Source: Felis catus
Lineage: Eukaryota
Direction: 5' to 3'
Assembly (NCBI RefSeq): GCF_018350175.1
Contig: NC_058379.1
Coordinates: 2,976,001 to 3,040,000 of the forward strand
Length of the DNA: 64,000 nt
Shown here: positions 6,734 through 61,968 of the stretch, piece by piece
Numbering within the stretch: the stretch's first letter is position 1
Layout of the letters: every line of letters begins with the position of its first letter
Notes under the pieces: model-generated
Seen by the model: only the letters and a program-made list of their open reading frames with translations
Told to the model about the DNA's origin: nothing
Database searches by the model: none
Made by a program: the position numbers and the translations under genes

Positions 6734-7376
<643 letters not shown>

Positions 7377-10190: not shown

Positions 10191-11393
<1,203 letters not shown>

Positions 11394-22390: not shown

Positions 22391-22831
22391 GGGCACCTGG
22401 GTGGCTCAGTTGGTTAAGCGTCTGACTCTTTTTTTTTTCAATATTTATTCTGGGAAGACACAGAGATAGAGTACAAGCAGGGGAGGGGCAGAGAGAAAGG
22501 GAGACACAGAATCCAAAGCAGGCTCCGGGCTCTGAGCTGTTAGCACAGAGCCCGATGCGGGGCTCAGACCCACGAACCATGAGACCATGACCTGAGCCAA
22601 AGTCAGGCGCTTAACTGACTGAGCCACCCAGGTGCCCCGAGCGTCTGACTCTTGACTTCAGCTCAGGTCATGATCTCATGGTTTGTGAGTTCAAGCCTTG
22701 TGCTGGGATCTGCACTGATAACTCAGAGCCTGCTTGGGATTTTCTCTCTCTCTCTCCTTCTCTTTCCCTCTCTCCCTCTCTCTCTATCTCTGTCTCTCTC
22801 TCAAAATAAATAAATAAACTTAATCAAAAAG
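22391..22831 (+). mobile_element. Older Can-SINE (outer), split by an inserted SINE
   Basis: gggcacctgggtggctcagttggttaagcgtctgactctt continues at 22640 as agcgtctgactcttgacttcagctcaggtc through to the CT tract and A tail. Confidence 0.92.
22431..22638 (-). mobile_element. Can-SINE (inner), inserted antisense into the outer SINE
   Basis: Full SINE on the - strand; TSD agcgtctgactctt at 22417-22430 and 22640-22653. Confidence 0.95.
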
Positions 22832-24445
22832 AAAGAATCTTAGAGGGCCATCTTGCAGACTGGAGATCACAACCCTTGCAGGTAGGTTCTGTCCAACTAT
22901 TAACAAAACTGACCTTCTCCATATTGATGAGCTTATATCCAACTGCTCAGAAAACCACTAAGGAAAGGGAATATCTCTTTCCCAGTGGTTCCAACAAGAG
23001 TCCAGAAAGGGAGTCATTGGTCTGGTTTGAGTTAGGTACCCATCCTTGAACCACTCACCAGATAACCAGGGGAAAATGGGAATCTTCCATTGGCCAAACT
23101 TTGACCCTATACCCACTCCTCAGCAGTGGGTTGAATCCTTCCCGCCCAAATCACATGATACTCCTCTTGGAAAATTCAGGTAGATTTTCTTATTTCCATA
23201 AAAAAGGGGAACGGATAGAGAACAGGGAAGATCAACCAAGGTCAAGTAAGGCTCTGGTTGCCCCTTCAGAGAATGAAGAATTGGCTGCCGGCCCTGTTCC
23301 TCACTCACCAAGTAAATCGATGAGCATCGGACCTTCAACTTGGGGACCTTTCGTGTGGGATGAAGGGGAGAGGAGACCTCACCGCTGCCTCTCTGGGCTT
23401 CCTGGGCGATTCACCACACAGTAGGCTGCTCTGTCTCTTTCCAATTGCTGAGATGGTTTAAAGTATATGAAGGCTTTGAAAATCATACCCAGCCTGTCTA
23501 AATGCTCCTCAAATAACTGAGCCGTAATCAATGTGTGCAATTAAAATTGTCCATTTTTTGATGTATAATTGTACAGACAAATAGCCTGAGCCATACGCGT
23601 CAATATATAGATCTTGGCAAGGAGGATGACATATTACCAGCAGCTATTAAGCATATTGTACCCACGCTCGAGCAGGGCTAAGCAATTTGGGTCAGTGGAT
23701 ATGGATTGAGAGAGAGAGCCTGGTCTTGAGCTGTAGACGGAAAAGGTCAAAGGGATTTACTCAGAGTCACATGGCCTGTGAGTGGCAAAGCCAGGGTTTG
23801 AACCCTGTCTCCTGACTTCGCACCCAGTGCTTGTTGGTTAGGGCCACTGTATTATCCAGCCCCGTTTCCTAGTGACAGTCCAAGTTATTAGGGGATGACC
23901 TCAGTTGTGTGCATTCTCGGTGGGACAGTAAAGACAGGTGGCTGACCTTCTGCGCAGAAGTCAAAGATCACCTGGACGCCCCTTGACCCGGAGCTTTTCT
24001 ATCACACCTGGGGGCCCAGCCAGCAGGTGCACTCACATTCTAGGCTTGGTTAACCAGGCACATGCTCTCTCGGGCCATTACCTCTCAAACAAATGACCAA
24101 GGACAGAAGGGGCTGGTGAAATGCATCCATTCTCTCGGGAGCTGCTCAGCCCATGTGTCCCTGCTTGGGACCTTTCCTGCCACTTCTGCTTCCCAGTCTC
24201 CAAAGCTACCCTGCTCCCTGCCTGTGTCCTCTCTCCCCAGTGAATTTCTGAGCTTCCAGTGGCCTTCCAGAAAATTTTACTTTGCTTGTATTAATGAGTC
24301 AGTTCCTTGCCTTCAAACATTCTACCTGAAAACAAACAAACAAACCGATCTTCCTATTATATGTTTCCTGATAATAATGGGGCATTTCTGGTCTCCGAGT
24401 ATTACAGCCAGGCCACAGTCATTTGGGATCTCTGACACTTATGGG

Positions 24446-27453: not shown

Positions 27454-29082
27454 CCGTGCTAGGGCCTTGATGGCTTCCCTAGTCTTTATAGGACCAGTGT
27501 GGCTTCCGAGTACCACGCAGGATCCCGCAGACTCCACGGTTATGTAGGGTCTATGGGGTTATACAGGGTCCTTGGTGTCTTTGGTAGTATGATGGTTTCT
27601 GGGGAAGCGATGGCCACGGTGCCATCAGAGCCATCAAAGGGGGTCTTGTCATTGTGGTTGGATTTGGGAAAGTCAATCTGGATGTGGGCTGAGCTGCCCA
27701 CCCCTTAGTTCACCAGCATGATGTCACTCTACCAGGAGTGGCTCAACACCGCTCACACCAGGGACAGCTCTATGTAATGGGGTTTAGGTAAAAGATGGCA
27801 AAAGAAACGAATACCTTTGCATGGTGTGAAACATTGTGTCCTGTTATGTCAAACATGTATAAATGTAAGGACTAGATCAGGTAGCCTTTCAATCAAACTC
27901 TGTATTACTGGGATGATAGGTAAGAAATTAGTAATTATGTTTGGCTCGGGAGGGAATCAGAGGCAAAGGGGTGGGAAGGACATTTGTCTCCTGACTTACC
28001 ATGTATTATCATGCCGGAGAAGCAGGGCGGAATAATGGTTGAGGGCAAGGACTTGGAACCGGAGTGCCTGGCCTTGAATTCCAAGCTCCCGGGTCCTTGA
28101 CCAAGATCACACAGCTCCTAAGTAGCTCACCCAGGATACGACATTAGCCTGGGTGTTTTCAGAGCCTGCATCCTATGGATATGCTTGGTGCACGCGCACA
28201 CGCACACACACTCACACACACACACGCTCAACATGACGATCCCACTTTGTATCTGTGCATGTCTACTACAGATAAGACCCACTTAATGTAAACTCTCCAT
28301 TTTCCGTTTTGTTTTCAGAGCATTCAGCCGTTCAAGTGAGGCTGTACTTCTCAATGATTCAATGGAGCGCACCTTAACTGAAAACAATGATGCGTGTTCC
28401 TTGTGATTTATATCCGTAGATTAAATGTCGTGTGCAAAACATGATATTACTTGCAGCCCCTCAATCTGTTAACTGGGCTGGGCCGGTGATCGTGTGTTTA
28501 TGACACCGAGGCTGAGCCCAGGGCTCAGCCCCCGCCCCCCCAGGGTTGCAGAAAGTCCTGGGTGGGGTTTAGCAAGCCTCCTGCATCCCCAACAAGGTTA
28601 CTCTGAAAGTACCCCCCATCCACCTTTCCTGATTTCAAAAACTACTTCGAGTGCACTGCCGCTCCTCAATTTCAACACCATATTGAGTACAAGGTTGGGT
28701 GTTTTACTGTGTGGTCTGTAAATTATATGAAAATAACAAAGCAAGATGCAGGGAGCTGTGCTGTAACCGTATCGCAGTGTCTTTGGACAGGAGGAGTCCA
28801 AATTCTCTAAGGTGTGGGGGGGGGGGGGGACCAGGCACAGCAAACTTAGCCAGGACCCACACAGAGGGGCCACGGCCACCGGATGATTGGTAAAAGCAGC
28901 AGACGCCGTCCCCCGTTTCCAGATCAGTAAGGTGTCCAGTCTGTGGTGTCACCTAAGTGATGTGGTACCACGGGAGGGAGGGAAGTGGAATTTCAGTCAG
29001 CCACTCTGTTTGGGGAGGATGCTCAGGGCACCCCCATTAGCACCAAATCAACCTTATCTACCAAGTAAACCAACAGTCTTTC

Positions 29083-29315
29083 TTTTTTTTTTTTTTAATT
29101 TTTTTAACGTTTATTTATTTTTGAGACAGGGAGAGACAGAGCATGAACAGGGGAGGGCCAGAGAGAGAGGGAGACACAGAATCTGAAACAGGCTCTAGGC
29201 TCTGAGCTGTCAGCACAGAGCCCGACGCGGGGCTCGAACTCACGAACTGTGAGCTCATGACCTGAGCCAAAACCAAAAGTAAGACGCTTAACCGACTGAG
29301 CCACCCAGGCGCCCC
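29083..29315 (-). mobile_element. Can-SINE (SINEC_Fc-like) without recognisable TSD
   Basis: Full-length - strand SINE ending ccacccaggcgcccc; the two flanks do not match. Confidence 0.95.
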
Positions 29316-41332: not shown

Positions 41333-42757
41333 CCAACGCGGGAACAGAGTGGGAAAGAAGAGTGGAAGGGCATTAGAGCAGGGGTTGAGACCTCGCGTAC
41401 CTGCAGGGCATAGCTGATAACACAAAGTAGCAATCGTAATTAATAATCGTAACAAATAGCGGAAAACCCTTACGTGTTGCTTTCAGGGTGGTAGGCGCGG
41501 ACAAGCTGCCTTGCCTGCTGCCAATCATCTGAGCTTCACAGCCGGCCTTCAAGTCCCCATCCTACAGAGGAGGACACCGAGCCATAGAGAGATTTGAGCA
41601 GTGCACCTGCTGTCACAGCTAGCAGGCGGCCGAATCAGGACCGAGCGGGCAGGGCGGAAGCGTGCGCCACACGGAGGCCGCAGCCGGAGTCCGCTCTGTG
41701 CACCTGCTGCCCCTGGGGAGGGCATATTCCGCATCCTCCTGAAAGGGGTCAGAAAGGGGGTTTCCTTACGAAACGTCTCAGTTAAGTATTGATTCAGTTA
41801 GATCACGTCACAACCTCTGGATAAGAACTGGGTAAAAATGCGGGCTGGAAGATGCTGACGGCGACCTCGTGGCGTCTCGGTGACTCTCGGAGACCCGGCT
41901 GGCGGAGCTCACACAACGCTGGCCCTCGGTTCTTCTGACTGCGAACCCAGTGCGCGCGTCACTGCGTAACAGACGTCAGCAGACCCCCGTGACATAAAAA
42001 TGAAATGATGGACCTTTTGTTTTCGTTTATTGTTGTCGTTTATTAATTGTGATATAGGAAACAGTTTATGATGACACTTTAATGGCTGGCTAACGGTTAT
42101 AATTGTTGCCCGTGGACTGGGTGCCGCTTGCGGCTGGGCTTGCTCAGGAGTCTGTGCTCGCCTCCCGGCCTGCTGGGGGCCGGCCTGCCGCCTCCTCGGT
42201 GTGGACTCCCCTCCGAAGCCTCGGCCGGTTACTTTAATGAGAGCCGAAGTGTGGGGAGAGCAATTAGGCTTTCAGAAGGGCGATTAAGGGAAGTGGCTCA
42301 TTGACACCTGACAAATTCCAACTGTTCAGGCCCAGTTTTAATCTTTGCTCCTATTCCCAGGGAAACAATCATCTAAGGAAGCTGAAATTAGAGGCCCGGC
42401 ACCATCGGGAGTTAATTCTATAGACCGCAAACCTTGCAAATGCTGGAAAAGTGAACAGGCTTAGCAAAAATGGAGGCTGGGTGCTGCATTAATGGCCCAG
42501 AGAGGGTTTTCCTGCCTTCCTCCAGGATGTGCGGATTCGCGTGAACAGGACAGAACAGTGGGGCGCCTGGGTGGCTCAGGTGATTGAGCGTCCGACCCTT
42601 GATCTCAGCTCGGGTCACAATCTCAGGGTTCGTGGGTGGACGCGAGCCCCGTGTCGCGCTCTGAGCTGGCAGAACAGAGCCCGCTTGGGGTTCTCTGTCT
42701 CTCGCTCTCTCTCTGCCTCTCCCCGATTCTCTCTGAAAATACATTTTAAAACTTTTA

Positions 42758-42984
42758 TTTTTTTTTAAATTTTTTTTTCAACGTTTATTTATTTTTGGGA
42801 CAGAGAGAGACAGAGCATGAACGGGGGAGGGGCAGAGAGAGAGGGAGACACAGAATTGGAAACAGGCTCCAGGCTCTGAGCCATCATCAGCCCAGAGCCC
42901 GACGCGGGGCTCGAACTCACGGACCGCGAGATTGTGACCTGGCTGAAGTCGGATGCTTAACCGACTGCGCCACCCAGGCGCCCC
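42758..42984 (-). mobile_element. Young SINEC_Fc-like element, 3' member of the composite
   Basis: Near-consensus full-length SINE with a 3-bp duplication (ccatcatcagccc); no individual TSD. Confidence 0.96.
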
Positions 42985-43086
42985 TGGGAGCATGATTTTC
43001 TATTTATAAATATGCCATTGATAATCAAGTTGTTTTCAATATTTTGCTTTGATGAATACTATATACACATTATTTTTCACATTTTC

Positions 43087-43314
43087 TTTTTTTTTTTTTT
43101 AATTTTTTTTTCAACGTTTATTTATTTTTGGGACAGAGAGAGACAGAGCATGAATGGGGGAGGGGCAGAGAGAGAGGGAGACACAGAATCGGAAACAGGC
43201 TCCAGGCTCTGAGCCATCAGCCCAGAGCCCAACACGGGGCTCGAACTCATGGACCGCGAGATCGTGACCTGGCTGAAGTCGGACGCTTAACCGACTGCGC
43301 CACCCAGGCGCCCC
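43087..43314 (-). mobile_element. Young SINEC_Fc-like element, 5' member of the composite
   Basis: Near-consensus full-length SINE with intact A/B boxes; its 5' end abuts the right TSD copy. Confidence 0.96.
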
Positions 43315-44268
43315 CATTTTAAAACTTTTAAATAAAATAAATTTAAAAATAGAACAGTTCCTAGAATAAAGGTGAACAATATTTGTGCAAACTCACTATG
43401 ATCACTCAAACCCCAGAAAATCTTGGTGAGAACCTACTCAGAGCAAGACATCGCAAATGTGCTGGAGGGCTTACTAAACGTCCACTGAGTGGAGGGACAG
43501 CTGACCACGAAGGTTGACGGCCTGCTTCTCAGAATGAGACACTCACAGGGCACACCCAGCACAAATGGGTTTGCAGAAGCCAGCAGTGTGGGTGAATCAG
43601 ATACGATCCAGGCATCTCTCCCCAACTCTTGATTTAGCTGATGTGGTAACTAGAATGTGAACCCTCCCCACCCCCCCAAAGAAAAGACCCACATCCTAAT
43701 CCCTGGAACTCGTGGATGGATATGCTGCCTTCCGTGACCAAGGACACTTTGCAGATGGGATGAAGGTCGGGGGCTGGAGGCAAGGAGGTTGCCCGGACCA
43801 GCCAGGTGGACCCTGTGCTCACGGCTTCTTACGGGAGGGACACCGAGGGCCAGGGGAGGGGGAGGGATGGCTGTCCACTCCCCTGTGCCTCAGTCTCCTT
43901 ATCTGCACAATGGGCGACGGTCGCAGCCCGTGCCTCACAGCAAGAATGCAAGGACCACGTGAATTAACACAGGAAATGTGCTTCTAGCTTCCAGTGATAA
44001 AAACAAAGGTTATTATGTATGAAAACAGCCTGATTCCTGGGGAACTTCAAACCCTCTTTTTTCTTTTCTAACTGAAGTGTAGTTGCCACAATGTTGCATT
44101 ACTTTCAGGTGTAGGACACAGTGAGGCGACACATCTATACATCATGCTGTGCTCACAAGTGTAGCAGCTACGTGTCACCATGCAACACTAATCGCCACCG
44201 ACGACCTCCATCCGCGTGCGGTACCTCCGGTCCCCAGGACTTCAAACCCATTTTTAAAATACACAGTA

Positions 44269-44511
44269 GGGGCGCCTGGGTGGCTCAGTCGGTTGGGCGT
44301 CCGACTTCAGCTCAGGTCACGATCTCGCGGTCCGTGAGTTCGAGCCCCGCGTCGGGCTCTGGGCTGATGGCTCAGAGCCTGGAGCCTGCTTCCGATTCTG
44401 TGTCTCCCTCTCTCTCTGCCCCTCCCCCGTTCATGCTCTGTCTCTCTCTGTCCCAAAAATAAATAAAAAACGTTGAAAACAATTTTTAAATAAAAAATAA
44501 AAATAAAAAAA
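44269..44511 (+). mobile_element. Young felid Can-SINE
   Basis: Near-consensus, long patterned A tail; TSD taaaatacacagta at 44255-44268 and 44512-44525. Confidence 0.97.
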
Positions 44512-61825: not shown

Positions 61826-61968
61826 NNNNNNNNNNNNNNNNNNNNNNNNNNNNNNNNNNNNNNNNNNNNNNNNNNNNNNNNNNNNNNNNNNNNNNNNNNN
61901 NNNNNNNNNNNNNNNNNNNNNNNNNNNNNNNNNNNNNNNNNNNNNNNNNNNNNNNNNNNNNNNNNNNN
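61826..61968. other. Assembly gap (143 N), followed by (CATCCCA)n to ~61997
   Basis: N run; catcccacatcccacatcccacatcccac on its right edge. Confidence 0.99.

Follow-up and report, generated by a model that had tools for sequence, protein, structure and literature searches.

Can a SINE carry flanking DNA along when it retrotransposes? The question is raised by a locus in the cat genome at which two young SINEs and an unrelated 102-bp sequence lie together inside one target-site duplication (TSD). Source copies of SINEs are hard to trace because SINE insertions, in contrast to those of L1 and SVA, reportedly bring no transduced flank with them (PMC3412727), and none was confirmed in bioRxiv 10.1101/2024.04.29.591526. 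We analyzed the locus within the window, that is, the whole 64-kb stretch of DNA under study.

Anatomy of the composite insertion

The unit reads on the minus strand as SINE1 (43314-43087), spacer (43086-42985) and SINE2 (42984-42758), and is enclosed by a direct repeat:

42742..42757, no strand assigned: TSD of the unit, copy at the 3' (tail) end, exact repeat
42758..42984, minus strand: SINE2, the 3' element, a full-length young felid CanSINE of 227 bp, tail with TTT and then A9
42985..43086, minus strand: spacer of 102 bp, 24.5% GC, no TTTT on the minus strand and five such runs on the plus strand
43087..43314, minus strand: SINE1, the 5' element, a full-length young felid CanSINE of 228 bp, tail with TT only
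43315..43330, no strand assigned: TSD of the unit, copy at the 5' end, adjoining the first base of SINE1, exact repeat

A first-pass annotation of this DNA had described an exact 16-bp direct repeat around two same-orientation young SINEs and a 102-bp spacer. All of its coordinates hold on re-checking, and the arrangement within one TSD is confirmed, with an insert of 557 bp. The 16-mer occurs at only these two sites in the window when both strands are searched, and the chance that a 16-bp repeat recurs within 600 bp is about 2e-7 under the local composition and 2e-5 against an 80% AT background. The proposed TTTT/AA nick fits if the TSD proper is 15 bp and a further base is shared; its position is ambiguous by that base, and we read the TSD from the sequence as 15-16 bp long. 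At 16 bp it lies within the 5-27 bp range of L1 TPRT; de novo Alu insertions have TSDs of 14.0 ± 3.0 bp (range 5-27, n = 192; PMC3415434, excerpt). Further hallmarks of L1 TPRT are the A8-TTT-A9 tail adjoining the TSD and the endonuclease-type target site. At the opposite end the insert begins with the first base of SINE1, which is the Pol III start, and this base directly abuts the TSD, as in a SINE (Pol III) transduction. The A and B boxes of SINE1 appear intact by eye, judged against what we take to be the consensus.

To place these ends among the SINEs of the window, we scored for each SINE 5' end the longest exact recurrence (at least 8 bp) of its upstream flank within 4 kb. Four of the 19 5' ends had a TSD at monomer distance (208-243 bp), and a displaced TSD was found only for SINE1 (557 bp) and for the older SINE that hosts the unit (791 bp). 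The remaining 13, namely SINE2 and 12 elements without any match, had no credible exact TSD. The best exact match for SINE2 within 4 kb was 9 bp long and 2161 bp distant, in agreement with the earlier statement that SINE2 lacks a TSD of its own. SINE1 and the spacer had likewise been said to share only a short match, which we confirm as 6 bp at the start of the spacer:

43080..43085, minus strand: 6-bp match to the target end, right behind the SINE1 tail, either chance or a very short TSD

Of the 474 A runs in the window, 38 are followed by such a 6-bp match (8%, or about 15% over two tries). Neither SINE has its own TSD of normal length. Tandem Repeats Finder reported 0 arrays in 42400-43800, so the unit is not a tandem expansion.

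As a separate observation from the same scan, a fairly young full-length SINE on the minus strand at 29080-29315, 84% identical to SINE1, also has no TSD-like match of at least 8 bp; it is possibly an insertion with target deletion.

The unit interrupts an older SINE

The composite unit lies within the tail of an older element of opposite orientation, which has a TSD of its own:

42552..42559, plus strand: TSD of the host SINE, left copy, exact 8-bp match
42560..43350, plus strand: older host CanSINE, its A-rich tail split by the insertion, 218 bp after removal of 573 bp
43351..43358, plus strand: TSD of the host SINE, right copy, exact match 791 bp downstream of the host 5' end

Once the 573 bp (the insert plus one repeat copy) are removed, the host SINE, which is 72% identical to SINE1, reads continuously across the unit, and its own TSD brackets everything. 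Since the host SINE is continuous and keeps its TSD, the spacer came after the host SINE and is not ancestral at this site; most likely it arrived together with the insertion. A single insertion that carried foreign DNA is well supported by this arrangement, and the case is stronger than the one made in the first-pass annotation because the unit splits an older SINE with a TSD of its own.

The window holds a second SINE-in-SINE case at 22391-22834, where a minus-strand CanSINE (22638-22430, 14-bp TSD) is nested in an older plus-strand CanSINE.

The two SINEs are young and of similar age

SINE1 and SINE2 are 94.8% identical to each other. Relative to the majority of the four closest SINE copies in the window, SINE1 has four and SINE2 three substitutions in 197 body positions; all are at CpG sites and there is no non-CpG change. 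SINE2 has one 3-bp duplication besides its CpG changes. Both SINEs are young and of similar age. In box A, SINE1 and SINE2 have G, and both the copy at 44269 and the host SINE have T. A T>G change in box A, along with low divergence, characterizes subtype IIB (SINEC_Fc1) in the available text of PMC4084570, and the G of SINE1 and SINE2 fits this subtype, the position having been matched to the text of that paper rather than to its figure. The GGCTCGG motif named in the same text reads GGCTCAG in both SINE1 and SINE2.

The spacer is foreign to its surroundings

The description of the spacer as AT-rich DNA unlike its neighborhood proved accurate: its GC content is matched or approached by few parts of the window, where only 3 of 625 tiles of 102 bp have 25% GC or less. 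A blastn search of the 64-kb window found no second copy (best other match, E 0.2). The spacer is thus single-copy there, and nothing supports the composite SINE family that had been suggested. The spacer does not end in T, unlike a terminated Pol III RNA. Its last 17 bp could instead be the remnant of a SINE target site:

42985..43001, minus strand: final 17 bp of the spacer, starting with a purine run that resembles an endonuclease site, the putative 5' TSD copy of SINE2 at the donor locus

A purine run at -17 of the spacer end also occurs in 7% of spacer shuffles (P 0.07) and in 4 of 17 other SINE copies; the run is not significant, and the resemblance to a genomic SINE target site is suggestive only.

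All six sampled spacer words were present in 20 of the 24 public sequencing runs listed. These 20 runs come from 12 studies under three organism labels, and six of them were not flagged as possible sources (14 were). The presence of the words in many runs indicates that the spacer is real DNA beyond this assembly, although its location is not thereby shown. The other four runs listed (all under one organism label, 2.5-2.9 billion letters) had 0.00 of the spacer words, which is not proof of absence. Six small runs (64-121 million letters) contain all six words, and if these runs are RNA they would hint at a transcribed second copy of the spacer. A 24-base spacer pattern had 0 matches in metagenome and viral contigs, where felid DNA is not expected, so that this result is uninformative.

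A possible likeness of the spacer to a decayed 3' piece of L1 ORF2 was also considered. It is unsupported: one of the three minus-strand frames, with stops read as X, gave 0 PDB matches (E 10) and 0 Pfam families.

Pol III terminators and the tails of the two SINEs

If the unit arose from a Pol III transcript, that transcript had to run through the SINE1 tail and the spacer. The first-pass annotation had stated that the spacer contains no TTTT terminator on the transcribed strand. T4 (TTTT) is indeed absent from the minus strand across all 557 bp, but a weaker signal is present:

43008..43012, minus strand: TATTT within the spacer, a Pol III terminator of moderate strength, as read from the sequence, with its efficiency taken from PMC8466645 (excerpt)

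In B2 constructs TATTT stopped 42% of transcripts and TGTTT 20% (PMC8466645, excerpt); TGTTT occurs once in each of the two SINE bodies. Passage of Pol III through the spacer would be incomplete, though feasible. Shuffling the spacer gives sequences without T4 in 60% of cases by base and in 87% by dinucleotide; elsewhere in the window T4 is lacking in 9 of 38 strand-windows with GC up to 32% and 50 of 146 with GC up to 40%. Because the absence of T4 is so frequent by chance (24-87%), the terminator argument is weak when taken alone.

It had also been assumed that Can-SINEs lack internal terminators. This does not hold in general, as Can is a T+ SINE family (PMC9599045 and PMC13756887, excerpts), but it is true of these two copies, with tail T runs of 2 and 3. 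Among seven other SINE copies checked in the window, three have a T4-T5 run in the tail; SINE1 has TT and SINE2 TTT. According to the available text of PMC9599045, Can terminators precede the tail, decay to TT or TTT, and then permit read-through. The tails of both copies have what read-through needs. A terminator-less SINE1 tail combined with a T4-free spacer is perhaps 2-7 times likelier under read-through than by chance, a figure that is our own estimate from the 4 of 7 tails without T4 and the 24-87% for the spacer.

A read-through model for the origin of the unit

We favor, at roughly even chances, the explanation that the 557 bp are one L1-driven copy of a Pol III transcript that comprised SINE1, its flank and SINE2, i.e., a SINE 3' transduction. 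At the donor locus SINE1, the spacer and SINE2 would have lain in tandem, as two same-strand SINEs 102 bp apart. With the terminator of the donor SINE1 decayed to TT, Pol III would continue into the flank, partly pass the TATTT in the spacer, and produce an RNA whose 3' end lies at or beyond the SINE2 tail. By the T+ route, transcription would stop at the T run of SINE2 and the RNA would then be polyadenylated, and the TTT plus A9 of SINE2 fits a shortened terminator; by the T- route, termination would occur at a flank terminator past SINE2. L1 ORF2p would cut the older host SINE within its A-rich tail and prime from the distal (SINE2) A tail.

A read-through RNA is a plausible substrate, because in cells ORF2p nearly always makes full-length copies of tagged Alu RNAs that contain long T4-free inserts (8 of 226 truncated; PMC3415434, excerpt). 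The retrotransposition of a read-through transcript proposed in the first-pass annotation stands as regards a single insertion with foreign DNA; the Pol III route is the likeliest one. The case for read-through is circumstantial, and makes the unit a good candidate rather than a demonstration. The product is likely a one-off passenger insertion, with no sign of function.

Alternative explanations

The same or nearly the same layout can also result from a template-switch chimera, from ectopic SINE-SINE recombination, or from two stacked insertions, none of which the first-pass annotation had named, and the weights that we give to all explanations are a matter of judgement. A chimera formed by template switching or RNA ligation is improbable, though the likeliest of the alternatives. 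ORF2p would copy an RNA ending in the SINE2 tail, such as a Pol II or L1 read-through RNA using the SINE polyadenylation signal, halt 102 bases upstream of SINE2, and jump onto the poly(A) end of an unrelated SINE RNA that became SINE1. The A-rich SINE1-spacer junction provides microhomology for the jump, and the end product would be identical to what is observed: one TSD enclosing a truncated partner and, 5' of it, a sense SINE of full length. The class is documented by 113 Alu/L1 cases, 88.5% of them sense and mostly with a full-length Alu (bioRxiv 10.1101/2025.02.02.635956, excerpt). However, two rare events are required at once, an orphan truncated RNA piece and a jump, and a terminator-free SINE1 tail or spacer is not predicted. 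The reverse chimera, in which SINE1 RNA with its flank is joined to SINE2 RNA, predicts a spacer ending in T, contrary to what is observed. Ectopic DNA recombination, which we judge distinctly unlikely, dispenses with RNA for the gain of the spacer: a lone SINE with a 16-bp TSD would later gain the spacer and a second SINE, either by gene conversion with both ends in SINEs from a SINE-spacer-SINE donor or by integration of a small SINE-spacer circle. This yields exactly the observed layout between young copies that are about 95% identical, and SINE-SINE non-allelic recombination is established (PMC3415434, excerpt). The strand-specific absence of TTTT is left unexplained by it, and the seven scattered CpG differences allow no mosaic pattern to be read. 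Ectopic templated gain inside a SINE is generally considered rarer than deletion, which also counts against recombination.

Two stacked insertions would begin with a 5'-truncated copy of the spacer and SINE2, which made the 16-bp TSD; SINE1 would later have entered the upstream TSD copy and produced a TSD of 6 bp. The 6-bp match flanking SINE1 does begin at a canonical endonuclease site, and SINEs often insert in tandem at a single site (cited in PMC3415434, excerpt). We nevertheless regard this as very unlikely: a TSD of 6 bp would fall close to the lower limit of 5-27 bp and would have to stop precisely at the earlier junction, the match also arises by chance at the rate given above for A runs, and SINE1, with four CpG changes against three, is not younger than SINE2. 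A shade less probable still is a Pol II passenger, in which the donor pair was embedded in a longer RNA, either a Pol II transcript or an L1 3' transduction, and reverse transcription happened to break off at the first base of SINE1 (an orphan transduction). L1 3' transductions occur frequently in dogs (about 36 per genome comparison, PMC12458276; 322 loci, PMC13103737; both excerpts), orphan transductions exist (PMC4859970), and Pol III read-through would not be required; truncation exactly at the first base of a SINE, without donor flank or L1 sequence, would on the other hand be a coincidence. We give least credence to an assembly artefact, or to the view that two SINEs inserted independently on either side of an ancestral spacer and that the repeat is fortuitous. 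The assembly is of draft quality, and in the window it has a 143-N gap at the tail of a SINE, but the exact 16-bp repeat at both junctions, the read-through of the host SINE after removal of 573 bp, the distinct private changes of the two SINEs, and the finding of the spacer in many runs all argue against it. Under any of these rivals the unit would be a routine by-product of L1 activity, and neither reading suggests a function for it.

Comparison with known transductions and chimeras

Among known systems, the unit behaves like a 3' transduction, and its sequence makes it a candidate member of that class. As in 3' transduction by L1, canine L1 included, and by SVA, an element is followed by downstream donor DNA and an A tail within one TSD at an L1 endonuclease site, and the carried DNA marks the parent (PMC12458276, PMC13103737 and PMC7980453, excerpts). 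The transductions in those sources come from Pol II transcription past a polyadenylation signal, whereas the present unit has a Pol III SINE as its 5' element. A second SINE, the source of the tail, would form the end of the carried DNA.

Alu-mediated transduction has been proposed to work by the same mechanism: Pol III runs on into flanking DNA, and the lengthened RNA is retrotransposed (Halabian et al., bioRxiv 10.1101/2024.04.29.591526). That survey confirmed none among 118,489 human AluY, with 633 candidates of which 24 had possible sources, and none in chimpanzee or macaque either. Its pipeline dropped segments containing another Alu, SVA or L1 and was therefore blind to a SINE-spacer-SINE layout. 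The present case differs in involving a tRNA-derived carnivore SINE and a 102-bp unique spacer. Two earlier candidate cases are cited by Halabian et al., reportedly the Kojima Alu monomer case and AluSx-WaluSat. Alu insertions are elsewhere said "never" to show 3' transduction (PMC3412727, in its available text). SINE 3' transductions are thus reported as absent or very rare, which counts against the read-through reading. Our literature search, which covered few subscription papers, found no felid, canine or other carnivore SINE 3' transduction. The phrase "SINE-mediated transduction" is used speculatively for enhancers near old SINEs in an excerpt of bioRxiv 10.1101/150482.

The T+/T- retrotransposition of Can SINEs (Kosushkin et al. 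2022, PMC9599045) is alike in that decayed TT or TTT terminators let Pol III run beyond the tail, and termination then falls to secondary sites that lie in tails or TSDs. It is described there for dog-like carnivores and for tail modules, and "transduction" has 0 hits in the main text as available. The Alu/L1 and U6/L1 chimeras of Law and Burns (bioRxiv 10.1101/2025.02.02.635956, excerpt) likewise have one TSD, a second part and, at the 5' end, a sense SINE of full length; their 3' part is the 3' end of a young L1, whereas that of the present unit consists of unique DNA and a SINE. Dimeric SINEs such as Alu and Urop (PMC13023118, excerpt) likewise consist of two related tandem monomers mobilized as one, but they are families with short A-rich linkers, and the present unit has one known copy and a 102-bp unique spacer.

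If the read-through reading is true, the unit would be a clean counter-example to the absence of SINE transduction and would show a route by which it can occur, with a neighboring SINE donating the tail. It would also name one active felid SINE source locus, pointing to the parent copy, and would expose the blind spot of a survey that discards segments with a second SINE. The unit would also picture the first step toward a dimeric SINE. As a tentative and rather doubtful extension, carnivore SINEs might make such 3' transductions recurrently, by read-through of decayed terminators with a neighboring SINE supplying the tail; the class would have been filtered from surveys, its spacers would barcode source copies, and some members may found dimeric families.

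Genomic context

Domains of the TMEM132 family (Pfam PF23486, PF23487 and PF15706) are encoded on the plus strand at 6909-7376 and 10191-11390, which we assign to the last coding exons of a TMEM132 family gene. They lie in two of the 98 ORFs tested by Pfam scan, out of 194 ORFs of 100 aa or more, and no other coding sequence was recognized among those 98. About 31 kb separate the last TMEM132 coding exon from the unit, which lies beyond it. A 143-N assembly gap at 61826-61968 begins in a SINE tail. From about 43640 the sequence has a likeness to an old LTR fragment, putatively of MLT1 type. Just upstream of the host SINE, at about 42200-42500, the DNA has the look of a conserved non-coding, enhancer-like element, an impression gained by eye only.
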